A DNA stretch of 64,000 bases from an uncultured cyanobacterium (GTDB lineage: Bacteria; Cyanobacteriota; Cyanobacteriia; Cyanobacteriales; CAWUOF01): the NCBI GenBank assembly GCA_963744145.1, contig CAVUSO010000001.1, positions 2,624,001-2,688,000 of the forward strand. The letters run 5' to 3'. A program made the position numbers and the translations under genes. Under the pieces are notes generated by a model. The model was not told where the DNA came from, did no database searches, and saw nothing but the letters and a program-made list of their open reading frames with translations. Positions 4,179-23,638 of this stretch are shown here, one piece after another. How positions within the stretch are numbered: the stretch's first letter is position 1; every line of letters starts with the position of its first letter.

Positions 4179-6431
4179 TTATTGCAGCAGCTCTATAATA
4201 GTATCAAATTGATAATTATTAACTAAATCAAATAGTTCCTTATTTAAAGCAGCATCATCATCAGGGAGTTCAGCAAGTAAGTTAAAAATTAAATCTGCAT
4301 CAGCACAAATAGCTCCGTAATACAACCGTTTTAGCCATTCATTGGGCTTTGTCTGGAGCATTTCCTTAGTTGGTTTTTCGGTAGAGAGTGTTAATTTAGC
4401 CAAAGATGGCTGTTGATTTTCGCTTTCATAAATATAACTAATTTGTAAATGTTCGGCAATTTTTGTTAAAATCACATCTTCTTGAAAAGGTTTACTAAGA
4501 AAGTCGTCACAACCTGCGGCTAAAATTGCGGCTCTTTCTTCATCAAAGGTACTAGCAGTTAAAGCAATAATTACTGGGTTAAACCTAGATTGATTTGTAG
4601 CTTTAATAGATTTAGTAGCTGCATATCCATCCATAATGGGCATCCGCATATCCATTAAAATCAAGTGGGGTTGCCAACTTAAACACAAATCGACAGCTTC
4701 TTGACCATTTTCAGCTTCACACACTTGAAATCCGATTCTTTTTAAGAATTTTATAATAGGGAGTCTATTGATTTTAGCATCATCAACGATCAGAATGCGG
4801 TAAGGTGGTTGTTCTGGTGCTAAACCAATCACCCGGATTTTGGCTTTTTTGGTTTCAATTTTTGGCGATCGAGACAAAGTAACCTGAATATCAAATGTAA
4901 AAATAGTGCCTTGATTAGGAATACTACTAACCCAGATATCTCCTCCCATCATTTGCACAAATTTTCGGCTAATGGGTAAACCTAATCCACTACCCTCTTG
5001 GGATTTACGACCTGTTTCAGTTTGGACAAATGGATCAAACAGAGTAGCGAGTTCTTCTGATGCTATTCCTAACCCCGTATCGGCAACTTTAAATAGCAAA
5101 CGTGCCGAGGTCAATGATCTAATTTCATCAGCTTTACTTACCTGTAATTTCACTTGACCTATGTCCGTAAATTTAATCGAATTTCCCAGTAAATTTAGCA
5201 AAACTTGCCGCAATTTATTTTCATCTGTTTGGACAAATTGAGGCAGATCAATACTACGTTCATGGATTAATTTTAAACCTTTAGATTTCGCTTTAACTTG
5301 CAGCATTTGTTCAACATGATCAAGCAAATTATATAAATTAAAACAATTTTCGTTCAGAGTTAATTTACCAGCTTCAATTTGAGACATCGATAAAATATCA
5401 TTAATTAAAGTCAGTAAATGTTCCCCACTGCGATTAATAATCGTCACATATTCTCTCTGTTCTGGATTCAGTGCTAAATCGCGCTCTAGCAATTGAGAAA
5501 AGCCTAAAATAGCATTTAATGGAGTCCGCAGTTCGTGACTCATATTGGCTAAAAATAAACTTTTAGTAAGATTAGCTTTATCCGCAGTTTCCTTGGCTTG
5601 TTGCAGGGCAGATTCTGCATATTTACGGGCGGTAATATCGACAACAGTTGCCGCAGCTCCGATCGCATTTCCATGTTGATCAATTAAGCTCGTATTATGC
5701 CATTCACAAATAATAATTTTCCCATCTTTGGTGATATTTTCATTAATACTACAAGAGCTACTTTGAGTACGAATCAACTCAAGTAAGCTTAATTTCATTA
5801 GCTCTTGATGATTTTCAGTCATCACCAGTCTAGTAATATTAATACCTAAAATCTGATCTTTTTGATAACCAAAAATTAATTCAGCAGTTGGGTTCCAATC
5901 GACAATTTCTAAGTCAAGATTTATTTCAATTAAAGCTAAAGGAGTTTGTTTAAATAAAAAGGAAAGTCTTGATTGAGAATTGATCAATTCCTCTTCTACA
6001 CTCTTGCGATCGCTAATATCAATGGCTGTACCAATAATTTGTTTTGGTTTACCATCAGCAGTTCTAGTAAACACACTATCACGACTCAAAAACCAGTGCC
6101 ATTCACCGTTTTTATGCCGCAATCGATATTCCGACTCCAGCACTTCACCTTCTTGAAAAGCATAAAATTTTTTCAGCTTTTGCGGAACTTTAGCCAAATC
6201 ATTTGGGTGCATTAATTTAGTAAAAGCTAAATCCCCTAATTCTTGTGCTGCTTCAGGTGAATAACCTAAAACTATACCAATTTCTCGATTAACATACACA
6301 GTCCGTTTTTCTAGTAAGTCGTAAATATAGATAAGATTAGGGTTAATTGCGGCAAAAAAAGCCCGTAGTTTAGATTCGGAAGCTAACCGTGCTAGCTCTG
6401 CTAGATCTGTTTGATTTGGATAGATATTCAT
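4179..6431 (-). CDS. PAS-PAS hybrid histidine kinase / response regulator
   Basis: Two PAS/PAC domains, FLANMSHELRTPLN H-box, NLLGNSIKFT, GSGLGL, REC domain (ILIVDD…LMDMRMP). Confidence 0.93.
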   Translation of the reverse strand: MNIYPNQTDLAELARLASESKLRAFFAAINPNLIYIYDLLEKRTVYVNREIGIVLGYSPEAAQELGDLAFTKLMHPNDLAKVPQKLKKFYAFQEGEVLESEYRLRHKNGEWHWFLSRDSVFTRTADGKPKQIIGTAIDISDRKSVEEELINSQSRLSFLFKQTPLALIEINLDLEIVDWNPTAELIFGYQKDQILGINITRLVMTENHQELMKLSLLELIRTQSSSCSINENITKDGKIIICEWHNTSLIDQHGNAIGAAATVVDITARKYAESALQQAKETADKANLTKSLFLANMSHELRTPLNAILGFSQLLERDLALNPEQREYVTIINRSGEHLLTLINDILSMSQIEAGKLTLNENCFNLYNLLDHVEQMLQVKAKSKGLKLIHERSIDLPQFVQTDENKLRQVLLNLLGNSIKFTDIGQVKLQVSKADEIRSLTSARLLFKVADTGLGIASEELATLFDPFVQTETGRKSQEGSGLGLPISRKFVQMMGGDIWVSSIPNQGTIFTFDIQVTLSRSPKIETKKAKIRVIGLAPEQPPYRILIVDDAKINRLPIIKFLKRIGFQVCEAENGQEAVDLCLSWQPHLILMDMRMPIMDGYAATKSIKATNQSRFNPVIIALTASTFDEERAAILAAGCDDFLSKPFQEDVILTKIAEHLQISYIYESENQQPSLAKLTLSTEKPTKEMLQTKPNEWLKRLYYGAICADADLIFNLLAELPDDDAALNKELFDLVNNYQFDTIIELLQ

Positions 6432-6497
6432 CTGTTTCTCAGGTAATACCAATAACCCATGAAATTGTACTTAATCTGAGTCTGATCTGTTAGCTAT

Positions 6498-6602: not shown

Positions 6603-8921
6603 TTAGATTTTTTCAGAAAATGGGGTTGAGATTTTACCTGTTAGTAAATAAGTCATCATCTTTCCTTTTCCTTTGACTTCGAGCAGACCCCGCTGTTTAA
6701 ACAGATATTTATCCTTTAATATTTGATAAGTTACATCTGTGACTTGAATGGTGTCTGTAATTCCCTGGGATTCCATCCGACTAGCTGTATTAACGGTATC
6801 ACCCCACAAATCATAGATAAACTTTTTCAGACCAATTACCCCAGCAACTACTGGACCAGTATTAATACCGATCCGAATCCTTAATGATTTTCCCGTTTCT
6901 AGATTAAATTGATTAATATCTGCTTGAATATCAAGAGCCATTTCTGCGATCGCGACCGCATGATCAATTCTGGGTGTAGGTAAACCACCAACTACCATAT
7001 AAGCATCACCAATTGTTTTGATTTTTTCTAATTGATGCTGTTCAGTTAATTGATCAAATCGAGAAAAAATTTCATTGAGTAATCCTACTAGTTCGGTCGG
7101 TGGAATTTGAGCGGAAAGTTGAGTAAAACCAACAATGTCAGCAAATAAGACTGTTACTTCTGCAAAACTATCGGCAATTGTATGTTCTAGTTTTAATCTC
7201 TGGGCGATCGCTGCTGGTAAAATATTCAGTAGTAAACGTTCTGATTGTTCCTGTTCGTAACGTAATGCTGCTTCTGCTCGTTTACGTTCAGTAATATCTC
7301 GAAAACTCCACACACGACCGACAATTGTTTCCCCCATCCGCTCCGGGAGGGAATAATGCTCAAAAATTCTCCCATCCTGAAGTTCAATTAAGTCATTAAC
7401 TTCTAAATCTGGCTGATTATATATTTGTTTGAGCAAATTTAGTGCTGTTTCTGGATCTTTCAATCGTTTGGCAAAAAATCTCAACTGCTCTTGAGGACTA
7501 AATAATAACAGTAAGTCTTTAGAAATATCCCACATTTCCAGAAACTTATTATTTAGATTAATCACCTTACCATTAATATCTACTGCGAGAATCCCATCCG
7601 CAGTAGATTCAAATGTAGCTTGGAGTAATGCTAAAGATTTTTCCAGCGCAATTTCTGCTTGTTTACGACTGGTTATATCTTCTACTGTCCCTTCATAATA
7701 CAGGATTTTGCCATCCGGATCTCGCACAGTGCGAGAGTTTTCTGAAATCCAAACGATACTACCATCTTGACGATAAACCTGAGATTCAAATTGAGATACA
7801 ACATTATGTTTATTTGATTCTGCAATAAACTGATCCCTGCGATGGGGAATCACATAAAGTTGCTGATTGAGATCAGTCAACTTAGTCACCATTTCGGTTA
7901 GGGATCTATATCCAAATAGACGTGCTAGCGTCGGATTAGCGCTGATAAATTCTCCAGTTGGGGTGGTCTGAAAAATACCTTCAGTTGAATTTTCAAAAAT
8001 ACTGCGATATTTTTCTTCTGCTAATTTGGTTGCTGCTAGTGATACTTGTAGTTTTTCTTTCGCTGCACTTACTAATTCAGCGGCTTTTCTTAATCTCATG
8101 ATAATGTAAGCTGCAATACTTACAATTACAATAATATCAAATAAATATAATAATAGGCGATAAAATCCATTATTTTTTAAAGCTTTTTCATAATTATCAT
8201 TGTAAGCTTTATACAGGATTTCATTATGTTCCCATGTGGGGAGTGAAACTAGATTTTCGAGCAGATTATCTACTTGTGGTTTATGAGTAAGAATCACTTT
8301 AATATGAATAATTACTGTATCTAAATCTACTGGATTGATGACTGGTTTATCCTCATATTTATTTTCCGCTAGAGCATTGAGTTCTTCACGTATTTTTGGG
8401 GCTAAATCTTCGCTTGCTGTTAAATTATAAATGAGCACGTCTTGCAATATTTCATTCAAATCATCGGCAAGATTACGGTTTTTTAAGGTAATTTTTTGGG
8501 TCAGATCCGTGATTAAAATTGGTAAGTAGTATAAAGAATTTTTCAGCACAGCATTACGAGATTTAAACTTTTCAATTAAATCATCTTTTCGCTGTTGCAA
8601 TTTGATACAATCTGTCAGCAATTGGTGAATTTCAACTTGTCCATTTGGATCAATAAAGCTGGGGGTATGCTGTAATTTTTGTTCGATGGTCGTTAGTTCA
8701 TTAATCTGATTGACAATTGGATCGTAATAAGTCAATAATCCATATCTTAGTTCAAAGATATTTTGATTAATATTCGCATCTAACTCTTTCATCCGACGCA
8801 AATTTGTATTAAATCGGTCATGTTGTTGAAAATCAATTTCTCCGGTTTTAAGCCATAAAAACAGAAAGATTAACAATCCAATTATGACCACTAAATAATT
8901 GCGTCTATTTTGCATAGTCAT
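6603..8921 (-). CDS. Membrane adenylate cyclase with DAHL-like periplasmic sensor and two PAS domains
   Basis: N-terminal TM, all-helical periplasmic domain (YYDPIV…EKFKSRNAVLKNSLYYLP), second TM, two PAS domains, class III cyclase (LFADIVGFT, EKIKTIGDAY, YDLWGDTVNTASRMES). Confidence 0.88.
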   Translation of the reverse strand: MTMQNRRNYLVVIIGLLIFLFLWLKTGEIDFQQHDRFNTNLRRMKELDANINQNIFELRYGLLTYYDPIVNQINELTTIEQKLQHTPSFIDPNGQVEIHQLLTDCIKLQQRKDDLIEKFKSRNAVLKNSLYYLPILITDLTQKITLKNRNLADDLNEILQDVLIYNLTASEDLAPKIREELNALAENKYEDKPVINPVDLDTVIIHIKVILTHKPQVDNLLENLVSLPTWEHNEILYKAYNDNYEKALKNNGFYRLLLYLFDIIVIVSIAAYIIMRLRKAAELVSAAKEKLQVSLAATKLAEEKYRSIFENSTEGIFQTTPTGEFISANPTLARLFGYRSLTEMVTKLTDLNQQLYVIPHRRDQFIAESNKHNVVSQFESQVYRQDGSIVWISENSRTVRDPDGKILYYEGTVEDITSRKQAEIALEKSLALLQATFESTADGILAVDINGKVINLNNKFLEMWDISKDLLLLFSPQEQLRFFAKRLKDPETALNLLKQIYNQPDLEVNDLIELQDGRIFEHYSLPERMGETIVGRVWSFRDITERKRAEAALRYEQEQSERLLLNILPAAIAQRLKLEHTIADSFAEVTVLFADIVGFTQLSAQIPPTELVGLLNEIFSRFDQLTEQHQLEKIKTIGDAYMVVGGLPTPRIDHAVAIAEMALDIQADINQFNLETGKSLRIRIGINTGPVVAGVIGLKKFIYDLWGDTVNTASRMESQGITDTIQVTDVTYQILKDKYLFKQRGLLEVKGKGKMMTYLLTGKISTPFSEKI

Positions 8922-11588: not shown

Positions 11589-11630
11589 AAATCTAGTTAT
11601 TTAAGCAAAAATCTGAAAAATATTACCAAT

Positions 11631-11669
11631 ATTTAGGTTGACCATTTAGGTTGACCATTTAGGTTGACC
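11631..11669. repeat. Short tandem repeat, 3 x ATTTAGGTTGACC
   Basis: Three exact 13-bp copies just downstream of alr. Confidence 0.85.
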
Positions 11670-11966
11670 ACTATTTTCAGTCTTTCGCCCGCCAGCAGTG
11701 GGACCAGATATCTGGTCTGTGTGACATCTTACGGTAGATCGGAATATCTACTTGATCACTTGTAGCTGGCATCAGGGCGATGCTTGTAATTTCTGATTTT
11801 TAGGTTAAATTATAAAGTACAGAGGTAATGATATAATCAACCCCATTGCTGTAAAATCAGCTTGACTTTAGTCCGAAATAGTTAATGATAGGACATCTGC
11901 TAGTTCAAATCGCAAAATTACTGATTTTGCTTTCACCATAATTCTGATTGAGGATAAGGTAAAAAC

Positions 11967-12548
11967 ATGGGTGAACTTACTAAAGAGGAAATGCGCGAAA
12001 GACTTGGCAATATTGACCAAATTCGCGATATTATTTTTGGCGCACAACTGCGCGAGTATTCGGCTCGATTTGATAAAATTGAGTCAGATGTATCCATGAT
12101 TCAACAAGAGATGCGCGATCGCATCGATCAAGTCAAAAATGTTCTCTCCACTGAAATTCGCACCGCGATCGATTCAATGGAGAAAAAAACCAAAACCTTG
12201 AGCTTGACGGTAGAAGATGAAAGTACCAATATTCGTCAACAGGTAGAACGACTCAACAAGAAGTTTTCTAGCAGTATTGAAGCTTTAAATGAAGCAGTTG
12301 ATAACCAAAGTACCTCCATTCGGGAAGATGTCTCCCAAACTAGAGAAAAGCTCCAAGAAGATACTCGTAACCTGAGAAATCATGTGTTTGAAGAGTTAGA
12401 CAGACGCTTTTCCCTGCTCCGCGAAATCAAAGTTTCCCGTGATGATATGGCGGAAATTCTGTTTGAACTAGGAATGCGTTTAAAAGGAAGTGAATTTGTT
12501 CCCCAATTGAAAGAAGCGGCTAGTGTCGATAAATCTTTTGGAGAATAA
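11967..12548 (+). CDS. Coiled-coil protein (first gene of small-GTPase operon)
   Basis: Heptad-rich helical sequence; NIDQIRDIIFG N-terminal motif; RBS-like GAGG upstream. Confidence 0.75.
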   Translation: MGELTKEEMRERLGNIDQIRDIIFGAQLREYSARFDKIESDVSMIQQEMRDRIDQVKNVLSTEIRTAIDSMEKKTKTLSLTVEDESTNIRQQVERLNKKFSSSIEALNEAVDNQSTSIREDVSQTREKLQEDTRNLRNHVFEELDRRFSLLREIKVSRDDMAEILFELGMRLKGSEFVPQLKEAASVDKSFGE

Positions 12549-12653
12549 AAACTTTTAACCATGTAGCTCTACCAGTTCAAGTTGCAGATGACAACTAGCC
12601 GGTAGTAGCACATGGAGTTAGCTGAATAAACCTTAAAAAATTATTAGGGTGCT

Positions 12654-14957
12654 ATGAAACAGCAAGAAGATTTTATTTCTGAATCGACTGAGCTGAATGA
12701 GGATTCTGAAGCTATGTTTAATAGCTTGCAGAGTTTGTTGCTTGATCTACTTATAGATGATGATAAAGACAATGTTGCAGTTGTCTCATCCTCCCAGCTC
12801 TCAACCACTAATGGTCACAGTGAAAACCTACCCATTCCTCCTACTGTTGCTAGTCCAACGAATGGTCATGTCATCACTCTCCCACTAACAGATGATACTT
12901 TAGTTTTACATAATTTAGTCACTCTTGATGAAAATTCACCAGAATTATTAGGAGAGGTAATCTCTCCAGAAGAAATTGGAGAAAAATCCGACAAACAAAC
13001 AGAAATAAGCTTAATCCCTTATCAGGTTGAGCATCAAGAACAATTGAGGGCTTCAGAAAAAGAAGAAACTTTAGTACCTGCTGAAAATTTACCGAATGTA
13101 GTTAATCCCCTAGAACGACTCCAAAGTCTATTAGTGGGAAATAATATGAAAGAATTTCAGCAGATAGTTATCCAACTAAAAGAAAAACTTAATCATCTCG
13201 AAAATCAGATTTATACTCCGGAAAATTTACTGAATTTATTGATGCCCTTAATTGCAGAACTTTTGAAAATAGATGTTTCTGAAGCAAGAGCAGCTTTTAT
13301 TAATGAAGCAGCGATCATTATTGGGGAAATGCTTCAGCAAAAAGTTGAACACCATCGGGATCAAGTGGGAGGGTTGTTAGCACCATTAATTTCCGTAGCA
13401 ATTAGAGAACAAATTAAGGAATGTCCAGAAGAAATTGCTGAAGCAATTGGACCAACAATGGGGAAAGCAATTCAAGAGCAAATTAAATTAGAAAAAGATG
13501 CAATGGTAGATGCTCTTTACCCTGTCATTGGTAGCACGATCGCTAAATACATGGCTGAAACAATTCGTTGGATTAATCAACAAATAGAAAATACTTTTAC
13601 CCTCCAGGGGGTTTACCGCAAAATTAGGTCAAAAGTTCAAGGAGTTAGTGAAGCAGAATTAATTCTCAAAGATATACCTTTTCGGGTTCAAGCAATTTTT
13701 CTAATTCACAAAGGCTCAGGTTTAGTAATTGCCGAAGTCCAGCAATCCGGTGATGAACAACTAGAGGCAGAAATGTTAGCAGGGATGTTAACAGCTATTC
13801 GCAGTTTTGTCAACGATTGTATTGCTCAGACTGGGAGTGAATCGGAACTAGATAAAATCGATTATGGGAATTCTAAAATCATTTTAGAAGTAGCCGGTTA
13901 TTGTTATTTAGCAATTGTAGTTAAAGGAGAGCCTTCTCAAAATTTTATCAGAAAAATGCGGGAAGCTATGGGGACAATTGTCCAAAGTTATGGTAACCCA
14001 ATTGAAGCATTTGATGGTGATCCTAGCAGTATTCCCCCGCAAGTAAGTATAATTTTAGAGAATTTAAGAGATCTGGAATTACAGGAGGGAAAAAAGCGCA
14101 ATTTTTTACCAATGATCACAATCACCCTGGTCATCTTAGGGATAATTGGGACTTGGGGATTTTATCAGTATCGCGATCGAACGAAAAGTCTTGTTCAAGC
14201 AGAAATTAGTGATGCACTGATCTCTGTACCTGAGTTATCGGTTTATCGTCTGAATGTGGAGATCAATGGTGATACCCTCAAACTTTCTGGACGAGTCCCC
14301 ACCCAGTATCTCCGTAATCAAGCTGAAAAAACGGTCTTGTTGAATCTACCCCTAGCATTTAAACTAGACAATCAGATTGTCCCAGTTGAAGTACCTCCTG
14401 ATCCGGTGTTAACAGCCAAAGAAGTAAAAAGGTTAACATCTATTTTTAATAATATGACGGGAGTTGCCATTTCCGCTCAGTATACACCACCAGGAAAAGT
14501 TACCATTGAAGGCATATTGAGTGAACGGACAGATGCTAAAAAAATTACTCAAGCATTTGAGAAGATTCCGGGTGTGCATTCGGTGACTAATAGTGCACAT
14601 GTCCAGGAAATCGGGTTGGGAACTCGGATCTATTTTGAGACGGGATCAGTCAAGTTAAAACCAACAGAAATGCAAAAAATTAGTCAGCTCAAAATATTCT
14701 TAAAAAGATATTCAGGCAAATATTTTCGGTTAATTGGATATAGCGATCGCAGTGGCAATTCCACAGAAAACCAAGTGTTAGCATTGGAACGAGCCAAGGT
14801 AGTTCGAGATACTCTAGTTGCTGGTGGGATGGATGCTAAACACTTACAAATTGTGGGCACAAACCAAGCTCCCTTAGATCTAGATGAAGAAGAACCACTA
14901 TGGGTAAGTAGATGTGTTGAAATTGAAGCAATCCCACCAGATGTGAGGGACAAATAA
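12654..14957 (+). CDS. Membrane protein: helical region, roadblock/longin-like domain, TM, BON and OmpA-like peptidoglycan-binding domain
   Basis: AIFLIHKGSGLVIA…MLAGMLTAIRSFV (roadblock-like), TM ITITLVILGIIGTWGF, BON (LKLSGRVPT), OmpA (IYFETGS…GYSD…NQVLALERAKVV…RCVEI). Confidence 0.8.
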   Translation: MKQQEDFISESTELNEDSEAMFNSLQSLLLDLLIDDDKDNVAVVSSSQLSTTNGHSENLPIPPTVASPTNGHVITLPLTDDTLVLHNLVTLDENSPELLGEVISPEEIGEKSDKQTEISLIPYQVEHQEQLRASEKEETLVPAENLPNVVNPLERLQSLLVGNNMKEFQQIVIQLKEKLNHLENQIYTPENLLNLLMPLIAELLKIDVSEARAAFINEAAIIIGEMLQQKVEHHRDQVGGLLAPLISVAIREQIKECPEEIAEAIGPTMGKAIQEQIKLEKDAMVDALYPVIGSTIAKYMAETIRWINQQIENTFTLQGVYRKIRSKVQGVSEAELILKDIPFRVQAIFLIHKGSGLVIAEVQQSGDEQLEAEMLAGMLTAIRSFVNDCIAQTGSESELDKIDYGNSKIILEVAGYCYLAIVVKGEPSQNFIRKMREAMGTIVQSYGNPIEAFDGDPSSIPPQVSIILENLRDLELQEGKKRNFLPMITITLVILGIIGTWGFYQYRDRTKSLVQAEISDALISVPELSVYRLNVEINGDTLKLSGRVPTQYLRNQAEKTVLLNLPLAFKLDNQIVPVEVPPDPVLTAKEVKRLTSIFNNMTGVAISAQYTPPGKVTIEGILSERTDAKKITQAFEKIPGVHSVTNSAHVQEIGLGTRIYFETGSVKLKPTEMQKISQLKIFLKRYSGKYFRLIGYSDRSGNSTENQVLALERAKVVRDTLVAGGMDAKHLQIVGTNQAPLDLDEEEPLWVSRCVEIEAIPPDVRDK

Positions 14958-14959
14958 CT

Positions 14960-15481
14960 ATGGCAACTATATCCAAGAAAATTTGTTTAGTTGGAGATTT
15001 TTGTGTTGGTAAAACTAGTCTGATTCGCAGGTTTGTGGATGGGCAGTTTAGTGATCAGTATTTGTCTACTGTCGGAGTCAAAATTTCTAAGAAAATTTTA
15101 GCCCTGCAAAATATCGCTCAATCAGACAAATTAAACGTCCAATTGTTAGTCTGGGACTTAGAAGGTCACACCAAATTTAAAGCGATCGCTCCCACCTATT
15201 TACAAGGATCTAGTGCGGCGGTGGTGGTTGCAGATGTCACCCGACCGGAAACGATTGAAAGGATTCCGGAACATATTAAACTATTTTTCTCAATTAATCC
15301 GAAAGGATTTGTGATTGTGGCTTTAAATAAGTCTGATCTGCTGAATGAGGAAAATTTGGCCAAATTAAATCGGTTTGAAGATGGAGATAAAATATTAGCA
15401 ACTTATCATACTTCGGCTAAAACAGGTAATTTCGTTGATGAAATTTTTGAAAAGTTAGCATACCGCATAATTCAGCCATAA
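14960..15481 (+). CDS. Ras/Rab-like small GTPase
   Basis: G1 GDFCVGKTS, G2 STVG, G3 WDLEG, G4 NKSD, G5 TSAK in a stand-alone 173-aa protein. Confidence 0.92.
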   Translation: MATISKKICLVGDFCVGKTSLIRRFVDGQFSDQYLSTVGVKISKKILALQNIAQSDKLNVQLLVWDLEGHTKFKAIAPTYLQGSSAAVVVADVTRPETIERIPEHIKLFFSINPKGFVIVALNKSDLLNEENLAKLNRFEDGDKILATYHTSAKTGNFVDEIFEKLAYRIIQP

Positions 15482-18255
15482 TGAATTCTCTTTATCAAAA
15501 ATTCTTAGCTCCACAACGATTGCAATATTTAGCAGTCGATCAGGATTTTGTTATTCAAGAAATATCCTTGGATAGTGATAAGTTTGCCGATTGTCCAGAA
15601 GAAATTGTTGAAGGTAATGATGTTCGACTAGGATTTCCAGAATTATTTGGGTTAGAAGATAATCTGATGGCTGTTTTACAAGGAGAAGAAAGTAGTTTTG
15701 AGTTAAAAGGTGTCGCGAGGTTTTCTGATCAGGATTTTCCTCTTTATATTGATATTTATGTAATTAATCCCAATGATAAAAAAGCTACCGATAGGTTAAT
15801 GCTTTTTTTTGAAGATGTCACCGAAAAAATGCTGTTGGAACAAACTTTATCCCAGCGATCAAATGAAGCTAGTTTATTATTAAGTGCTTTAGCTAATTCC
15901 AAAGATTATATAGAAAAAATTATTACTTCGATCGCCGATGCGCTATTAGTAACTACGAAAGCGGGAATTATTAAAACTGTCAATCCCTCAGCTAAAAAAA
16001 TATTTAATTATACAGATACGGAAATAATTGGTCAACATATCGGGATCATTATTGAAGATGAGATTTTTATTAACCAAACCATGCAACATGATTCAGTTCT
16101 AACTGGTGAGATATTAAAGGATGTGGAATTAATCTGTAAAACTAAAAATGGTGAAAAAATTTATGTAGAATTTTCCTGTTCAGTGATTCAAACCAATGTA
16201 GATCAAAATAATGAAATCTCTAACGATACCCAAGATTTTATCTATATTGGGAGAGATATTACTGAACGCAAACGTTCCCAACAAAATCTCGTTGCTAAAC
16301 ACGCCGCAACTCGGATTCTGTCTGAGTCAGCTACTATTCATGAAGCCATTCCGCAAATTCTATTAGCAATCTGTGAAAGTTTGGGATGGACGGTGGGAGA
16401 ATTATGGATGCCCGTTGCACTTCCTCGGGATAGAAAATTTAGGGAAAATCTTACCTCTAATCATGTTCATCCTCAACTTCAATGTGTGGAAATTTGGTCG
16501 AAACCAGGAGCGAATACTCAAGAATTTATTGAATTTGCCCAACAGATTACCTTTAGTCCAGGTGAGAACTTAGTAGGTCAAGTTTGGTCTAGTAGTTTAC
16601 CTATATGGATTAGCAATTTTGCCGATAATCAGCAATTTTTGCGTTCAACTTATGCTGCTCAAGCAGGACTTCAGACTGTATTTGCTTTTCCCATTCAAAG
16701 CAGTGGTCAAGGATTAGGAGTGATCACGTTCTTTAGTGAGGAAGTATATCCTTATGATGAAGAAGTCTGCCAAACAATTACGGATATTTGTAATCAATTA
16801 AGTCATTTTATTGAACGTAAAAGAGCCGAAGCAGCCTTACAAGAAAGTGAAGAAAGATATCGAGATTTATTTGAAAATGCTAGTGATTTAATTCAAAGTG
16901 TTGGGGTTGATGGTCAATTTTTATATGTGAATAGAGCCTGGAAAGAAACTTTGGGATATAGCGAATCAGAAATTGATAATATGTTGGTATTTGATATTAT
17001 TGATCCTGACTGTAAAACCGATTATTTAGAAATGTTTCAGCGAGTGCTATCCGGCGATAAGATTGATCGAATTAAAACTACATTTATTACGAAAGAGCAA
17101 AAAAAAATTTCCTTAGAAGGAAGTGTTAATTGTAAATTAATCGATGGCAAACCTGTGGCAACTCGGGGAATTTTTCAAAATATCACCGAACGCAAATTAG
17201 CGATGGAAGCTTTGAAACTAAGTGAAGCAAATTTAGCCGAAGCTCAAAAAATTGCCCATCTGGGTAGTTGGGAATTGGATCTGGTTACCCAAAATGTAGT
17301 TTGGTCTGAGGAAATGTTCCGCATTTTTGCCCTCGATCCAGAACAACAAGAATTCACCTATTCCGAATATGTGCAAATGATTCATCCAGAGGATCGGGAA
17401 TTCTGGCAGGTCATGATTGCCGATGCGATCGCTAAAGTAAAGTTTTATGAATTTGATTTTCGGATTGTCCGACCCGATCATTCGATTCGATATATTAATG
17501 GTAGGGGTAAACCTGCTCTCGATGATACTGGTAAAGTTGTGCGGTTATTAGGGACTGCGATGGATATTACAGAACGGAAATTAGCAACTGTAGAATTGCG
17601 GTATCAAAAAGAACAATCGGAACGATTGTTGTTAAATGTTTTGCCGACAAAAATTGCGGAACGTCTGAAACAAGAAGAACAAACGATTGCTGATAAGTTT
17701 GCCGAAGTTACAGTGATGTTTGCTGATATTGTTGGGTTTACTGAATTGGCTTCGTCCATGAACGCGATCGAATTAGTTAGCTTGCTCAATCAAATTTTTT
17801 CCGATTTTGATCGTTTGTCAGAACGACATAGTTTAGAGAAAATTAAAACTATTGGTGATGCTTATATGGTAGTGGGAGGGTTACCCGAACAACGAGATGA
17901 TCATGCCGAAGCGATCGCCGATATGGCCATGGATATGATGATGGCGATCGCTAACTTTAATACAGAAAATCAGAAAAATTTTAGTATTCGGATCGGTATT
18001 CATAGCGGTCCAGTCGTAGCTGGGGTGATTGGGATTAAAAAGTTTATTTACGATCTCTGGGGTGATACGGTTAATACCGCGAGTCGGATGGAGTCTCACG
18101 GTTTAGCAGGACAGATTCAGGTATCAGCAGCCAGCTACGAAAAATTATATCATAAATATTTATTTGAAGAACGGGGACATATCCCGATTAAAGGTAAAGG
18201 TAAGATGCTTACTTATCTTCTGATTGGTAGAAAAGTTCATAGTTTATCAGCCTAG
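15481..18255 (+). CDS. Cytoplasmic multi-PAS/GAF adenylate cyclase
   Basis: PAS, GAF (ESLGWTVGELW), PAS, PAS, class III cyclase (MFADIVGFT, EKIKTIGDAY, YDLWGDTVN); TAATG overlap with the GTPase gene. Confidence 0.92.
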   Translation: MNSLYQKFLAPQRLQYLAVDQDFVIQEISLDSDKFADCPEEIVEGNDVRLGFPELFGLEDNLMAVLQGEESSFELKGVARFSDQDFPLYIDIYVINPNDKKATDRLMLFFEDVTEKMLLEQTLSQRSNEASLLLSALANSKDYIEKIITSIADALLVTTKAGIIKTVNPSAKKIFNYTDTEIIGQHIGIIIEDEIFINQTMQHDSVLTGEILKDVELICKTKNGEKIYVEFSCSVIQTNVDQNNEISNDTQDFIYIGRDITERKRSQQNLVAKHAATRILSESATIHEAIPQILLAICESLGWTVGELWMPVALPRDRKFRENLTSNHVHPQLQCVEIWSKPGANTQEFIEFAQQITFSPGENLVGQVWSSSLPIWISNFADNQQFLRSTYAAQAGLQTVFAFPIQSSGQGLGVITFFSEEVYPYDEEVCQTITDICNQLSHFIERKRAEAALQESEERYRDLFENASDLIQSVGVDGQFLYVNRAWKETLGYSESEIDNMLVFDIIDPDCKTDYLEMFQRVLSGDKIDRIKTTFITKEQKKISLEGSVNCKLIDGKPVATRGIFQNITERKLAMEALKLSEANLAEAQKIAHLGSWELDLVTQNVVWSEEMFRIFALDPEQQEFTYSEYVQMIHPEDREFWQVMIADAIAKVKFYEFDFRIVRPDHSIRYINGRGKPALDDTGKVVRLLGTAMDITERKLATVELRYQKEQSERLLLNVLPTKIAERLKQEEQTIADKFAEVTVMFADIVGFTELASSMNAIELVSLLNQIFSDFDRLSERHSLEKIKTIGDAYMVVGGLPEQRDDHAEAIADMAMDMMMAIANFNTENQKNFSIRIGIHSGPVVAGVIGIKKFIYDLWGDTVNTASRMESHGLAGQIQVSAASYEKLYHKYLFEERGHIPIKGKGKMLTYLLIGRKVHSLSA

Positions 18256-18366
18256 TTTTGGCAGGAGGTGATTTTCTAGCTACTTCTATAACCAGGGTTT
18301 ATCTGTTGAGTCTTTTACCATTTTATTCAAAAGAAATGTACCCCATATTTGATTTAATTAAAAACA

Positions 18367-19902
18367 ATGAACTCGCTGCTCAAAAAATTATTAGCTGCTT
18401 GTCAGATGGAATACTTAACCCTTGATCAAGATTTGATGATCCAAGAGATTTCCTCTGGTGTGCAACGGTTTGCGGATAGTCCTGATGATATTAGTCTGGA
18501 AAACGATGTCCGGATCGGCTTTCCTGAATTAATCGGGATGGAAGATATTTTAATGGCAATTATCCAAGGAGAGCAACCTAGTTTTGAATTAAAAGCGGTG
18601 AGCCGTTATCTGGAAAATAATCAGCTTTTATATATGGATATTTGTATTATTAGTAATACAGTAGAAACATTGTTAGAAAAAAAATTAGTGGTAGTTTTTG
18701 CTGATGTAACTGAAAAAATGATGATGGAACAAACTTTAGTGCAAAGAAGCAATGAAGCCACTTTATTATTAAATGCTTTAGCCGCCTCGAAAGATTATAT
18801 TGAAAAAATTATTACTTCCATGGCTGATGCTTTATTAGTAACTACCAGAGCCGGAAATATTAAAAAAATTAATCAAGCTGCTCAGAAATTATTTGGTTAT
18901 GACGAAGTAGAGTTAATGGGACAATCCGTGTCCATGATTTTTGCTGAAGATGAGATTTTAGAACAAATATTTGCCCAAGAATTTAAGTTGATTCAAGGGG
19001 AAATTTTGCCAGATATGGAAGTAATTTGTCAAACTAAAACTGGAGAAAAAATCCCGGTAGCATTTTCTTGTTCATCGATCCAAACAACTACAAAAGATGC
19101 TCAGGATTTAGTCTATATTGGTCGTGATATGACCGAACGGAGAAATGCTCAGGAGAAAATAAAAAAATTAAATAAAGATTTGGAAATTAGAGCGATCGCG
19201 CTGGAAGCTGCTAATCAAGAATTAGAGGCTTTTTCCCACTCAGTTGCCCATGATTTGCGGAACCCACTTAACAAAATTATTGGTTATAATCAAATTGTGA
19301 TTGAAGAATATAATCAACAATTAGATGCTGATGGTAAATCCTATTTAGAAGTAGTCAAAGAATCTAGTTTACGAATGAATGAATTAATTACCGATTTACT
19401 CAGGTTATCTCAGGTAACCCGAGGAGAAATATGTTATGAAACAGTGGATTTGAGTGCTTTAGCAACAGCAATTGCGATCGATCTTCAACAAAGAGACCCG
19501 AAACGACAAGTAGAATTCCAGATTTTAAATGGTGCAATTACCACTGGAGATGCTGCACTCTTAAAAATTGTCTTGGAAAATTTACTTGGTAATGCTTGGA
19601 AATTTACAGGTAAACAACCTCAAGCTCAAATAGAGTTTGGGATTTCTCCCCAGAAAAATGCTAAACAGACTGCCATTATACCAGCTTTTTTTGTCCGGGA
19701 CAATGGTGCTGGTTTTGATATGAAAAAAGCCAGTAAATTATTTACTGCTTTCGAGCGTCTGCACAAAAATAGTGACTTTGAAGGGACGGGGATCGGTCTA
19801 GCTACTGTACAACGGATTATTCATCGTCATGGGGGACGGATTTGGGCAGAAAGTAGCCTTGGTAAAGGTGCGATATTTTATTTTACTCTAGAAGTACACT
19901 AG
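18367..19902 (+). CDS. PAS sensor histidine kinase
   Basis: FSHSVAHDLRNPL H-box, NLLGNAWKFT, DNGAGFD, GTGIGL; N-terminal ~260 aa paralogous to the upstream cyclase. Confidence 0.92.
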   Translation: MNSLLKKLLAACQMEYLTLDQDLMIQEISSGVQRFADSPDDISLENDVRIGFPELIGMEDILMAIIQGEQPSFELKAVSRYLENNQLLYMDICIISNTVETLLEKKLVVVFADVTEKMMMEQTLVQRSNEATLLLNALAASKDYIEKIITSMADALLVTTRAGNIKKINQAAQKLFGYDEVELMGQSVSMIFAEDEILEQIFAQEFKLIQGEILPDMEVICQTKTGEKIPVAFSCSSIQTTTKDAQDLVYIGRDMTERRNAQEKIKKLNKDLEIRAIALEAANQELEAFSHSVAHDLRNPLNKIIGYNQIVIEEYNQQLDADGKSYLEVVKESSLRMNELITDLLRLSQVTRGEICYETVDLSALATAIAIDLQQRDPKRQVEFQILNGAITTGDAALLKIVLENLLGNAWKFTGKQPQAQIEFGISPQKNAKQTAIIPAFFVRDNGAGFDMKKASKLFTAFERLHKNSDFEGTGIGLATVQRIIHRHGGRIWAESSLGKGAIFYFTLEVH

Positions 19903-19914
19903 CATCAATGTTTT

Positions 19915-20718
19915 ATGACTATTTTTGCGATCGATTTACCAAAATTAGCGCTATCACCGTTTTGGCAACACCTAATTGGACTTGGTTTTCAGATTGTCCC
20001 GAAACTGCTGTGGGTAATCGCGATTTTAATCCTGACAAGAATAGCTATTCGTTTAGTTGGTAATCTGACTCGTCAAGCTTTAAGTCACATCGAACTAACG
20101 ATTCGGAAATTTCTGATCCAAGTCGCAGAAATTTCCACTCTGTTAACGGGATTGATTTCAGCTTTAAATATGATCGGGATTCAAACTAATACGATTATTG
20201 CGGTCATTGGTGCTGCGGGTTTAGCCATAAGTCTAGCTTGGCAAAATACTTTATCTCATTTTGCTGCTGGGGTAATGTTAATTAGTTTGCGCCCCTTTGA
20301 AGTCGGAGATTTTATTGAAGGTGCAGGTGTAGCAGGTATTGTTGATGCAATTGGGATATTTTCCACTACTCTGATTACTCCTGATCACGTCAAAATTATG
20401 GTGCCTAATGCTCAATTATTTAATGGTACTCTGAAAAATACTACAGCTTTAGGAACTCGTCGGATTGATTTAGAGATTGATATTGGCGATCGGCCCATTG
20501 AACCTACCATTACCATGCTATTAGGCATAGTTCAGCCCCATCCTCTGGTTTTAAATCACCCCAAACCTACCTGTCATGTAGCGACGATTTCCGCTACTAA
20601 TACCATTTTATATTTGCGTCCTTGGTGTGCAGCTACTGTCTATGAACAAGTGCGCTCAGAGGTACAGCTTTTAATTAAAGAAACTCTGCAAATCACACCT
20701 ACTCTTGAGGAGCATTAA
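19915..20718 (+). CDS. Small-conductance mechanosensitive channel (MscS family)
   Basis: GAAGLAISLAWQNTLSHFAAG, RPFEVGDFI, VPNAQL. Confidence 0.9.
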   Translation: MTIFAIDLPKLALSPFWQHLIGLGFQIVPKLLWVIAILILTRIAIRLVGNLTRQALSHIELTIRKFLIQVAEISTLLTGLISALNMIGIQTNTIIAVIGAAGLAISLAWQNTLSHFAAGVMLISLRPFEVGDFIEGAGVAGIVDAIGIFSTTLITPDHVKIMVPNAQLFNGTLKNTTALGTRRIDLEIDIGDRPIEPTITMLLGIVQPHPLVLNHPKPTCHVATISATNTILYLRPWCAATVYEQVRSEVQLLIKETLQITPTLEEH

Positions 20719-20857
20719 GCCAGCTCCCCAGCGGTCATCGGTCTATCAATGGGACAAAAGAAAATGCCTCTCGGGAGAAATAGACATTGTAATTTTTTTT
20801 TGGCAATTTCCTTGACTAATCCCGAATAGGGATGCTATGATTAATAATCGTGACCCT

Positions 20858-20949
20858 GGAGAGGTGGCTGAGCGGTCGAAAGCGGCAGATTGCTAATCTG
20901 TTGTACGGTTGGTAACTCCGTACCGAGGGTTCGAATCCCTCCCTCTCCG
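20858..20949 (+). tRNA. tRNA-Ser (GCT)
   Basis: GGAGAGG/CCTCTCC acceptor stem, anticodon arm GCAGA-TT-GCT-AA-TCTGT, long variable arm, GGTTCGAATCC T-loop; TTGACT-18-TATGAT promoter at 20812-20841. Confidence 0.97.
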
Positions 20950-21197
20950 TTTTTTAGGAGTTTTTTATATGTTCCTGGCAGGTTATGGACTCTGTTGGCA
21001 AATTGACTTGCGGAATGTGGGATGACCACTGGTTTCAGCCATCAATTCATACCTTGAATCAGCGACACCCCGAAAATTCATACTCAAAAAATATACTTTT
21101 CCGTACACACAATTATGTTTTTTTCTGCTAAGGAAATAAGCGCACTGTGGTTTGAGAAGGTAGCTGAATTGGATTCAATATTGATTACTTGATTGGG

Positions 21198-22159: not shown

Positions 22160-23188
22160 TTAAGGTGTTTGCCAAATTCGCTGATGGTATTCGTCTAAAT
22201 TGGCATAAGGATCTTCAGCCGGATGGGAATGATCATGGTGATGGTGATGACCATTGACCTGCTCATGGTGGTGATGATGATGTCCCCGATCGCTGATCTG
22301 TTCAAGAGCAGTTAAGCGGAATTTACACATTTCACAGTTCATCTGAACTTGTCCTAGTTGGGTCTCAATTTCTCGATCGCGCACGAGAGCAAGGAGCTGG
22401 GGTTGAATTCCCATTTCTGGTAAACAAATAGAGGAAATTTCTGGGTATTGTTCTTGCTGTTGGGCTGTAATATCAAAGATTTTTTTCACCAGTAATCCGG
22501 TAAACAGAAAATATGGTAAAACAATGATGCGTTTAGGTTGGTAAAGACGGGCACGTCGAAATCCTTCTTCTAAACGAGGATGGGTAATCCCAATAAAGCA
22601 AGTTTCTACAGTCAAGTAACCACTACCTTCCCACAACACTCGCGCTAGTTTGTACACATCCCCATTAGCATCAGGATCACTAGCACCTCGTCCGACAAAT
22701 AATAAGACAGTTTCCGAACGAGCGATCGCTTGAGGATTGGATTGGGGTTGATCTAATTCTGCTAAACGAGCTTTCCACAAATCGAGAATAGCTGGAGTAA
22801 TCCCAAAATGTCTACCATAATGAAACTTAATCTGAGGATGACGTTGTTTGGCTCGATCGAGTTCATTGGTCACATCAAATTTATTATGTCTTGCCGCAAA
22901 TAGCAACACTGGAAGCGCAGAAATTTCTGTATATCCTGCTTCTACACATTGATCTATTCCTGTCTGAATACTCGGATCGGTTAGTTCCAGAAAACAGGGA
23001 ATTACGGGACGAGATGAATCTAAAGCTTGGTAGGTAGCGACAAAATCTAGGAAAGTTTGTCTTCCATCCCGATCGCGAGTCCCATGACCAATCATTAATA
23101 ACGGACGCAGGAGCGGTAAAGCTGGTAATCGGAGGGATGGGTTAACTGGGACTAAGGTAGATAAATCGACGGAATTTACAATGGACAT
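22160..23188 (-). CDS. cbiX: Sirohydrochlorin cobaltochelatase CbiX
   Basis: [26 protein letters not shown] Fe-S motif and His-rich C-terminal tail. Confidence 0.93.
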
Positions 23189-23237
23189 CTATGAAAAATC
23201 CTTTCCTGTGCGACGCAGGAAGTATATTTTGGTAGCA

Positions 23238-23340
23238 ACAGGTAGGTATTCTGGCTGACGAGCCTATTATACATAGACTGCGTTTACAGCTGCGGCACAG
23301 CCTCGGAATTACACCGATGTTTCCCTACCTTTTAGTGATC
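23238..23340 (-). ncRNA. Cobalamin (B12) riboswitch
   Basis: Minus strand reads AGGGAAacatcGGTGtAATTCCgaggCTGtgCCGCAgCTGTAA…AGCCAGAatACCT (B12 box) directly upstream of cbiX; hairpin TTCCTG..CAGGAA overlaps the RBS region. Confidence 0.85.
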
Positions 23341-23638
23341 TTAACTTATTTAAGATTTAATTAATATAGTGGACTGGGTGATAATTGTCAGTTTGTAGTA
23401 AAAATTATTTCCTGATCATGGTGCGATCGTATTAGTTGGTGGTAAAAATTAGATCTTAATTATGGTGCGATAAATTTTTTAATTCAATCCTTTTTTTTGA
23501 ATTTTACTATAATTTCTCTACCAATAACTAAAATTAAATTAACCTTAGTAGGATCTTAACTAATGGATTGAAAGTTCCTAACAAAGACTGTCCTAAACTA
23601 GATAGGTGGAATCAAATCTAGAAAAGTAGTAGTGAATT

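Follow-up and report, generated by a model that had tools for sequence, protein, structure and literature searches.

Gene organization of the locus

The locus described here lies in a 64,000 nt stretch of DNA (the window) from an uncultured, filamentous cyanobacterium (GenBank assembly GCA_963744145.1, contig CAVUSO010000001.1, positions 2,624,001–2,688,000 of the forward strand); all coordinates are positions within the window. It contains the gene for a Rab-like small GTPase which, together with its neighbours, probably makes up a signalling cassette of the Group 1 Rup type. An initial annotation had placed six co-directional genes here, coding for a coiled-coil protein, a membrane protein, the GTPase, an adenylate cyclase, a histidine kinase and an MscS-type channel. 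All six open reading frames (ORFs) were found exactly as placed in the ORF list of the window (Table 1), and Pfam agreed on the OmpA and BON domains of the membrane protein and on the GTPase, the cyclase, the kinase and the channel. The junctions on either side of the GTPase gene were also as described: a 2-bp gap separates it from the membrane-protein gene (TAA-ct-ATG), and it overlaps the cyclase gene by 1 nt (TAATG). NCBIfam contributed nothing beyond generic names. For the 193 amino acid (aa) protein encoded by the first gene, all Pfam matches to helical or coiled-coil families were sub-threshold, and the ESM Atlas yielded clusters of cyanobacterial hypothetical proteins only.

A promoter scan found 28 promoter-like sites where 30.7 were expected, and the promoter and terminator scans performed no better than on shuffled sequences. 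These scans were uninformative, so the operon structure was deduced from the gaps and overlaps alone. An Rfam scan detected no RNA element within the gene block.

Table 1. Coordinates of the cassette genes, of domains within their products and of adjacent genes
Feature	Position	Strand	Basis
193-aa helical/coiled-coil protein, first cassette gene	11967..12548	+	ORF; ortholog upstream in 62/65 loci
767-aa inner-membrane protein	12654..14957	+	ORF, Pfam, AlphaFold2 model, Foldseek, hydropathy
Predicted longin/roadblock-like domain, aa 344-451 of membrane protein	13683..14006	+	AlphaFold2 and Foldseek
Single transmembrane helix, aa 484-506 of membrane protein	14103..14171	+	Only hydropathy peak
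Periplasmic BON domains and OmpA-like peptidoglycan-binding domain, aa 513-736 of membrane protein	14190..14861	+	Pfam
173-aa Rab-like small GTPase, Group 1 Rup type	14960..15481	+	Pfam Roc/Ras, motifs, orthologs
924-aa class III adenylate cyclase	15481..18255	+	Pfam, PDB-sequence alignments, motifs
Cyclase N-terminal shared module, aa 1-140, predicted GTPase-docking site	15481..15900	+	AlphaFold2, complex prediction
511-aa histidine kinase	18367..19902	+	Pfam, H-box
Kinase N-terminal shared module, aa 1-140	18367..18786	+	Similarity to cyclase copy
267-aa MscS-type channel, adjacent but outside the conserved cassette	19915..20718	+	Pfam, NCBIfam
tRNA-Ser(GCT), downstream end of the gene block	20857..20950	+	RNA gene scan

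The small GTPase

The GTPase matched the Pfam families Roc (92 bits) and Ras (89 bits) and carries all five motifs, G1 to G5, that had been read from its sequence: G1 GDFCVGKT (aa 12), T37 of switch I, G3 DLEG (aa 66), G4 NKSD (aa 123) and G5 SAK (aa 152). The motif set comes with a caveat, in that His70 occupies the position of the catalytic Gln of Ras and Rab proteins (WDLEGH versus WDTAGQ in Rab22A). The P-loop also differs from that of Rab (GDFCVGKT versus GDTGVGKS). Among 21 aligned members of the GTPase family, Phe14 was invariant and His70 nearly so. Cys15, at the Ras G13 position, was peculiar to the GTPase of the window; 18 of the 20 aligned relatives had Gly at this site and the other two had Ser.

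The protein is shorter than 240 aa, has a single domain and retains the G3 Asp (D66 of DLEG), and its nearest solved relatives were Rab22A, Rab21 and Rab5 (E 1.6e-22), which bears out its earlier assignment to the non-MglA, Rup-type GTPases. It is soluble, with no lipidation motif (its C-terminus reads RIIQP). Orthologs with 62–72% identity were found in filamentous cyanobacteria, and the source annotation is 'Rab family GTPase'. No closely related fused form of the GTPase was present among the longer relatives searched; these were all distant (30–43% identity) and joined the GTPase to a TPR or NACHT-like domain or, in Asgard archaea, to Pfam Roadblock. The set inspected (P0275 and P0321–P0367) included a 387-aa distant relative with HisKA in its precomputed Pfam list (43% identity), and Asgard-archaeal proteins of ∼306–327 aa combining the GTPase with Pfam Roadblock (PF03259; 36–41% identity). 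The latter are natural fusions of the two partner types considered below for the cassette.

The module shared by the output enzymes

The key link in this locus is one that the initial annotation overlooked: the cyclase and the kinase begin with the same module. Residues 1–265 of the kinase and 1–270 of the cyclase are 54% identical (E 5e-85), and this shared front end consists of ∼115 residues lacking a Pfam match, a linker helix and a recognizable PAS domain. At E≤0.01, Pfam detected nothing over residues 1–125 of either enzyme, PAS matches beginning at about residue 145. An AlphaFold2 model of residues 1–140, built from 32 sequences (predicted local distance difference test, pLDDT, 88.6), showed a PAS fold followed by a 26-residue helix; the strands (15–20, 24–28, 72–81, 87–95 and 105–112) form a five-stranded antiparallel sheet with flanking helices. 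Foldseek returned 164 PDB matches to this model at E≤0.001, the top ones being short LOV proteins, LOV kinases and the PAS domain of Rv1364c. The module is therefore predicted to be a divergent PAS fold extended by a long helix.

Residues S29, F52, P53, E54, G57, Y89 and D91 of the module were invariant, and the motif FPELxGxE was conserved. In the helix, Q121, Q125 and E129 were at least 90% conserved in the 32 modules; Q121 and Q125 remained so in 80 diverse ones. A search with a profile of the module gave 867 representatives at E≤0.001 among 1.84 billion proteins (443 at 1e-10 and 169 at 1e-30), and in these the module nearly always started at residue 1. In the best 80 of the 867 matches it was accompanied by HATPase_c (29), HisKA (27), Guanylate_cyc (8), GGDEF (7) and EAL (1) domains, with a following PAS_9 in 68. 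Inspected by eye, ten of the 150 best matches had a module that was not N-terminal; their N-terminal extensions were of other kinds and included no GTPase. In a few library proteins with the module away from the N-terminus (P0214, P0215, P0228, P0233, P0246, P0254, P0256, P0258 and P0260) the preceding segments resembled, again by eye, receiver, winged-helix or protein-kinase domains.

Downstream of the module, the two enzymes differ. The cyclase gave the Pfam order PAS-GAF-PAS-PAS-Guanylate_cyc (231 bits for the last), so that its full layout is the N-terminal PAS-like module followed by PAS, GAF, PAS, PAS and cyclase domains. Its catalytic domain aligned with mycobacterial cyclases and with mammalian adenylate cyclases, in the latter case with the C1 half as well as the C2 half. 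It contains FADIVGFT (aa 747), KTIGDAYM (aa 789) and YDLWGDTVNTASRME (aa 857); in alignments with AC8 and AC5, FADIVGFT and KTIGDAYM fell on the metal motifs of C1, and KTIG and YDLWGDTVNTASRM on the C2 motifs. The metal-binding Asp motifs, the Lys of KTIGD, the Asp of YDLWG and the Asn/Arg pair are all retained; we take the two Asp residues to bind metal, the Lys/Asp pair to specify ATP and the Asn/Arg pair to act in the transition state. Judged by its sequence, the 924-aa enzyme is a class III adenylate cyclase. The kinase has the Pfam order PAS-HisKA-HATPase_c, with the H-box from aa 290, and no transmembrane (TM) segment was predicted in it.

Conservation of the cassette

Species-representative genomes were scanned with the alignment of GTPase orthologs, which yielded 80 loci (62–72% identity), all from cyanobacteria or metagenome-assembled genomes (MAGs). 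The domains of the window were compared by blastp with all ORFs of these loci. Loci were considered informative if they had at least 3 kb upstream of the GTPase gene for the membrane protein, at least 4.5 kb upstream for the coiled-coil protein, or at least 400 bp downstream for the module.

An ortholog of the membrane protein lay directly 5′ of the GTPase gene in 66 of the 70 informative loci, with a 2-bp gap in 50 of these, and the coiled-coil gene was found upstream in 62 of 65. Downstream of the GTPase gene, 77 of 78 informative loci had a gene for a protein with the shared module at its N-terminus; in 52 of 79 loci, this gene and the stop codon of the GTPase gene overlap by 4 bp. One module protein was present in 33 loci, two in tandem in 42 and three in four. 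Clustering at 85% GTPase identity reduced the 80 loci to 32 clusters spanning many cyanobacterial genera, the largest holding 36 loci; a reading of the locus tables showed that 28 of the 32 clusters keep the membrane protein and 31 keep the module. The arrangement seen in the window is far beyond what chance would give, because its core is syntenic in related genomes, and the survey thus confirmed the synteny expected for the three core genes.

The module was attached to kinases in 56 of the 80 loci, to class III cyclases in 53 and to both in 39. Other outputs included GGDEF proteins, hybrid kinases of up to 2405 aa and stand-alone module-plus-PAS proteins (240–295 aa). The module therefore tracks the GTPase gene whatever the output domain. 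Three variant loci (L018, L028 and L075) lack the OmpA protein; in these, a TetR gene, a gene for an unknown protein of 253–302 aa and one for a pentapeptide-repeat protein accompany the GTPase gene, which is followed by that of a stand-alone module-plus-PAS protein of 257 aa. As these loci retain both GTPase and module, the GTPase-module pair is the tightest unit. One of them (L028) lies in the same MAG as a full cassette (L057), so some genomes hold both types of locus.

Additional GTPase paralogs, 51–60% identical to the GTPase of the window, were observed between the membrane-protein gene and the main GTPase gene in three loci: L006 (4239–4823), L007 (6378–6728 and 9238–9774) and L057 (3771–4550). 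In L006, no module-bearing protein is encoded 3′ of the GTPase gene, and the next gene is MutL-like.

The conserved unit comprises the coiled-coil protein, the membrane protein, the small GTPase and one to three output enzymes, and is narrower than the six genes initially proposed. The MscS gene starts 12 bp past the kinase gene, and its product matched Pfam MS_channel_2nd (60 bits) as well as an NCBIfam profile. Its inclusion in the system did not hold: none of the 80 loci gave a blastp match, and 54 of them had at least 5.3 kb downstream. The upstream alanine racemase gene was likewise rejected as a part of the cassette, having a counterpart in none of the 80 loci. Since MscS is absent from related loci, the idea that the system senses mechanical state is left with the BON and OmpA domains as its sole basis, and an envelope or mechanical input is conjecture.

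Predicted contact between the GTPase and the module

The GTPase (21-row alignment) was modelled together with GTP, Mg and the module (32-row alignment) in three runs. The interface score ipSAE (interaction prediction score from aligned errors) was 0.82, 0.83 and 0.82, while the best control reached 0.01. The runs shared at least 94% of their contacts, and the partner pLDDT was 79 or higher. In the calibration of the tool, 116 of 157 solved complexes and two of 215 mismatched pairs attained such a score; these counts are only roughly valid here because custom alignments were used and ligands were included. Structure prediction thus supports the contact between the GTPase and the N-terminal domain of the cyclase that the initial annotation had put forward.

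The predicted surface of the GTPase comprises residues 5–7, P-loop residues 14–15, switch I (34–42), E68 and switch II (71–79). That of the module comprises FPELxG (53–58), strand 74–79, Y89 and helix 117–135, which includes Q121, Q125 and N128/E129; strand 74–79 packs against residues 38–41 of the GTPase. The module is therefore predicted to dock on the P-loop and on switches I and II. Conservation follows this surface on both partners. Module columns at the interface were more conserved than those elsewhere (0.74 versus 0.55; Mann-Whitney p 3e-4), and between the cyclase and kinase copies 19 of 27 interface residues were identical, compared with 57 of 112 at other positions. On the GTPase, 20 of the 28 residues at the predicted interface were invariant, versus 41 of 145 elsewhere. 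We know of no solved complex between a PAS domain and a small GTPase, and none was present among the PDB fold matches of the module.

The membrane protein

The membrane protein consists of a variable N-terminus (aa 1–160), a helical region (aa 161–335), a predicted longin/roadblock-like domain, a TM helix, two BON domains and an OmpA-like domain. Residues 1–160 had no blastp match in any of the 80 loci. Pfam recognized OmpA at aa 660–736 (45 bits, cutoff 27.2) and BON in two stretches (40 bits, best at aa 513–561); NCBIfam matches to YiaD, YfiB and Pal-like proteins were all below their cutoffs. The motif GYSD...LERA begins at aa 695. The TM segment, the sole hydropathy peak, is preceded by KKRN and followed by RDRTK, and a single hydrophobic segment fits a cytoplasmic N-terminal part and a periplasmic part with the BON and OmpA domains. 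In the helical region (13134–13658), some five loose repeats of the form x-P-x-I-x3-I-x2-Q-I were seen by eye, examples being LAPLISVAIREQI and IGPTMGKAIQEQI.

An AlphaFold2 model of aa 161–500 was built from 23 orthologs. Residues 161–335 were modelled as long helices at low confidence. Residues 344–451 formed a compact domain (pLDDT 75–92) with the order strand-strand-helix-strand-strand-strand-helix; numbered from the start of the model, its elements are E184–192, E198–203, H212–229, E241–244, E247–254, E257–264 and H269–291. The top Foldseek matches in the PDB were AP2 sigma, TRAPP Bet5/Trs23, LAMTOR, MglB, the C-terminal domains of Rag proteins and Mon1-Ccz1. Among the PDB matches listed, all 26 with E≤0.001 were longin/roadblock proteins or complexes holding them; the match to MglB (6izw_C) had a target-normalised template modelling score of 0.64 and a root mean square deviation of 2.7 Å over 103 columns. 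An ESM Atlas search with this part of the protein gave a best score of 0.77, no more than a lead. The cytoplasmic domain of the membrane protein is thus predicted to have a longin/roadblock fold. The roadblock/longin-like domain claimed in the initial annotation therefore stands as a predicted fold backed by fold matches, while sequence comparison gave it no match (see below).

Relation to the Group 1 Rup family

The Rup family was defined by Wuichet and Søgaard-Andersen (Genome Biol Evol 2014/15; PMC4316618), who described these GTPases as the bacterial proteins most closely related to eukaryotic Ras, Rab and Rho. In the text of that survey available to us, the Group 1 neighbourhood comprises a coiled-coil protein, a protein with a domain of unknown function, a TM segment and OmpA, a GTPase without the G3 Gln, and an output protein, typically with GGDEF/EAL or histidine kinase domains, whose N-terminal region has an invariant Gln. 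The authors speculated that this Gln acts in trans, likened the system to the conservon and proposed that the components form one signalling system; cyanobacteria are listed among the Group 1 carriers. The four-gene neighbourhood and a similar hypothesis have therefore been in print since 2014. The central idea of the initial annotation agrees with this hypothesis and is sound, and its interpretation as a whole finds partial support here.

Every Group 1 feature that was tested was found at the locus of the window: the coiled-coil protein, the protein joining an unknown domain, a TM segment and OmpA, the GTPase lacking the G3 Gln, and output enzymes with a conserved N-terminal Gln, for which Q121 and Q125 are both candidates. 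The locus differs from the published description in having a class III cyclase as output and two effectors in tandem, where the main text of PMC4316618 names GGDEF/EAL proteins or kinases. It differs also in what is now predicted for two of the regions: the unknown domain has a longin/roadblock fold in the model, an identification that is new here, and the N-terminal region of the output proteins is modelled as a PAS domain plus helix with a GTPase interface. The available text of the survey counts no Rup gene as coupled to MglB, which would be explained by the invisibility of the longin/roadblock-like domain to sequence methods, and it reports no characterized Rup protein. In a paper on the Arthrospira genome (PMC2853384), none of the terms GTPase, GTP-binding, small G and Ras appears.

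Proposed signalling mechanism and its alternatives

On balance, it is probable that the locus is a Group 1 Rup signalling cassette in which the GTPase docks on the shared module of two enzymes and the longin/roadblock protein serves as its platform or regulator. This reading is the best supported by gene order, its conservation, the predicted folds and the predicted interface; from these we infer the binding itself, its dependence on the nucleotide, the direction of the signal and the stimulus. The GTP-bound GTPase would use the edge of its P-loop together with switches I and II to dock on the N-terminal PAS-like domain and helix. Docking would alter the signalling helix running on to the PAS and catalytic domains downstream, and cAMP (cyclic AMP) synthesis and kinase output might thereby be set in parallel. 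Longin/roadblock domains act as platforms or regulators for MglA, Rag and Rab GTPases, and the one predicted here could serve the GTPase as GTPase-activating protein (GAP), guanine nucleotide exchange factor (GEF) or anchor. The membrane protein would tie the GTPase switch to the peptidoglycan-bound envelope.

A broader proposal, held more tentatively and a little short of even confidence, is that the divergent PAS domain and its C-terminal helix constitute a previously unrecognized small-GTPase-binding domain, and that the membrane partner of the switch conceals a longin/roadblock domain. If so, a single Rab-like switch would drive cAMP, cyclic di-GMP and phosphorelay enzymes in bacteria, and the pairing of a Rab-lineage GTPase with a longin/roadblock protein would already exist in the bacterial Rup lineage, and not in the MglA lineage alone. 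The combination of a Rab-lineage GTPase and a longin/roadblock platform is a hallmark of eukaryotic membrane traffic.

Several observations weigh against the proposed cassette mechanism. The complex score is a confidence that the model assigns to itself, custom alignments without pairing were used, and the calibration set contained no ligands. No GTPase-module fusion was found among the longer GTPase relatives or among the 150 best module matches. Many of the 80 loci are closely related, with 36 in one cluster, and the membrane protein is absent from four of the 70 informative loci and is therefore not obligatory. The longin/roadblock model is only moderate overall (mean pLDDT 68.5, predicted template modelling score 0.46); Pfam at E≤10, run with the 23 orthologs, gave no Robl_LC7 match (or any other family) for this domain, and when PDB sequences were searched with a profile, neither roadblock proteins nor MglB came up, the best hit being TolR at E 0.15. 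Finally, no experiment on any Group 1 Rup system was found in the available text of PMC4316618 or in the later literature searched, in which few subscription journals were covered.

A first alternative, which we regard as unlikely, is that the module is mainly the GAP of the GTPase: its helix (Q121, Q125, N128/E129) would supply a catalytic residue in trans, and the enzymes would switch the GTPase off while perhaps also being controlled by it. This would agree with the speculation, in the available text of PMC4316618, that the invariant Gln carried by the output proteins stands in for the G3 Gln that the GTPase lacks. It would also fit the at least 90% conservation of Q121 and Q125 in both the 32 modules and the 80 diverse ones. 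In the predicted complex, module residues 121, 124, 125 and 128 touch switch I (34–38) and P-loop residues 14–15, which correspond to the Ras G12/G13 positions, the entry site of GAP fingers. There are precedents, since Rap1GAP supplies an Asn and the TBC RabGAPs a Gln in trans. However, the predicted complex yields contacts, and not distances from a Gln or Asn to the gamma-phosphate. The nearly invariant His70 could itself be catalytic, as a His is in translation GTPases, and the bulky Phe14 sits at the Ras G12 position, where a bulky residue blocks finger insertion.

Somewhat less likely again, the GTPase might act spatially, as MglA and Rabs do, recruiting the cyclase and kinase to the membrane protein at envelope sites (e.g. 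septa or filament poles) and leaving their intrinsic activity unchanged. The GTPase is soluble and without a lipidation motif, OmpA and BON domains anchor its partner to peptidoglycan, and longin/roadblock domains, including those matched in the PDB, are typically platforms that localize GTPases; the enzymes, which carry PAS and GAF sensors of their own, may not need input from the GTPase. The predicted contact nevertheless includes the helix running into the next PAS domain, the usual allosteric route in LOV/PAS enzymes.

A reversed flow of information, in which the PAS/GAF enzymes sense cytoplasmic signals and control the GTPase, and this in turn acts on the OmpA protein as the output, is very unlikely. 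The enzymes hold up to four additional PAS/GAF sensor domains, the membrane protein has only BON and OmpA and no recognized ligand-binding domain, and stand-alone modules without an enzyme domain would suit pure GTPase regulators. Against this, varied output domains on a constant module are the usual signature of a shared input with varied outputs, and the loci without the membrane protein still retain the GTPase-module pair. Lastly, it is scarcely credible that the neighbours are merely co-transcribed and their products share no pathway: the contact is predicted and not measured, and the promoter and terminator scans were uninformative, but the 32 clusters, drawn from many cyanobacterial genera, keep the gene order together with its 2-bp gaps and 4-bp overlaps, the module accompanies the GTPase whichever output domain it carries, and the complex prediction is high with clean controls.

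For the cassette mechanism preferred here, the additions to the published account are the predicted longin/roadblock fold hidden in the membrane protein, the predicted PAS identity and docking surface of the module, and the cyclase output, which make the system directly testable. The two pieces predicted to bind, the 173-aa GTPase and the 140-aa module, are soluble, the interface residues are named, and cAMP offers an easy read-out. If the predictions are true, the module would be a new GTPase-effector domain and a bacterial Rab-like protein would control second-messenger synthesis; the partnership of GTPases with longin/roadblock proteins would be extended to the bacterial lineage nearest to the eukaryotic small GTPases. 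Should the predictions fail, this is one more neighbourhood of the kind catalogued in 2014.

Comparison with other systems

The Streptomyces conservon (CvnA-D), proposed to be a G-protein-like system, is similarly an operon for a small Ras-like GTPase, a roadblock-type protein, a membrane protein and a histidine kinase, according to the available texts of PMC13343842 and PMC4316618. As described there, however, its GTPase, CvnD, belongs to the MglA family (Group 2) and not to Rup, and its roadblock protein, CvnB, is a separate, MglB-type protein recognizable by sequence, of which the locus of the window has no counterpart. The membrane component CvnA is itself the kinase, whereas the kinase of the window has no predicted TM segment. 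The conservon set as described in those texts, which also includes CvnC, lacks OmpA and BON domains, a shared PAS-like module and a cyclase.

The MglA-MglB pair of Myxococcus xanthus also joins a small GTPase to a roadblock-fold regulator, and the domain predicted here superposes on 6izw_C, 6h5b_B and 6hjm_L. Unlike MglB, to which it has no resemblance in sequence, this domain forms part of a membrane protein of 767 aa. In the GTPase of the window the G3 Asp is present (DLEG), whereas according to the text consulted of PMC4316618 MglA is without it.

Among eukaryotic platforms, Ragulator-Rag, TRAPP, Mon1-Ccz1 and the AP sigma subunits provided the best fold matches to the cytoplasmic domain and are associated with Rab- or Rag-type partner GTPases; the likeness is one of predicted fold only, at 8–18% identity, and the bacterial domain differs in being tethered to a periplasmic part that binds peptidoglycan. 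Eukaryotic Ras offers a second comparison. Ras binds the Ras-binding domain (RBD) of Raf and, in yeast, acts on adenylate cyclase, and its effector domains are ubiquitin-like RBD or Ras-association (RA) domains. Docking on switch I, with effector strand 74–79 set against GTPase residues 38–41, is predicted here as well, and one of the putative effectors is an adenylate cyclase. The docking domain would, however, be a PAS domain plus helix and not a ubiquitin-like RBD or RA domain, and the analogy with the Ras-cyclase pathway is formal only.

Short LOV proteins and LOV/PAS kinases (7r5n, 8a36, 2pr5, 4gcz and, for the PAS domain of Rv1364c, 3k3c) match the predicted module and have the same succession of a PAS core and a long C-terminal helix (J-alpha) directed toward the output. 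In contrast to them, the module has no Pfam PAS match over residues 1–125 at E≤0.01, and its conserved FPELxGxE surface is predicted to bind a protein and not a ligand.

Other features of the window

Three head-to-tail copies of a 13-bp unit, ATTTAGGTTGACC, are present at 11630–11680, in the 378 bp that separate the alanine racemase gene from the coiled-coil gene. These were detected as overlapping hairpins during the terminator and promoter scanning, and could be a binding site for a regulator. A stable hairpin was found at 12559–12615, in the 105-bp spacer between the coiled-coil and membrane-protein genes (region 12540–12660: -31.5 kcal/mol, z -3.33, none of 200 shuffles as good); it is not a conserved feature, because these two genes are 7–16 bp apart in many relatives.

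A second class III cyclase, with the layout DAHL-PAS-PAS-cyclase, is encoded on the minus strand at 6603–8921, and its catalytic domain is 67% identical to that of the cassette cyclase. The adjoining gene on the same strand (4179–6452) encodes a hybrid histidine kinase; both proteins lack the shared N-terminal module. Beyond the cassette, a cobalamin riboswitch (23224–23347, minus strand; 43 bits against a gathering score of 31.5) lies upstream of a CbiX gene (22160–23188).

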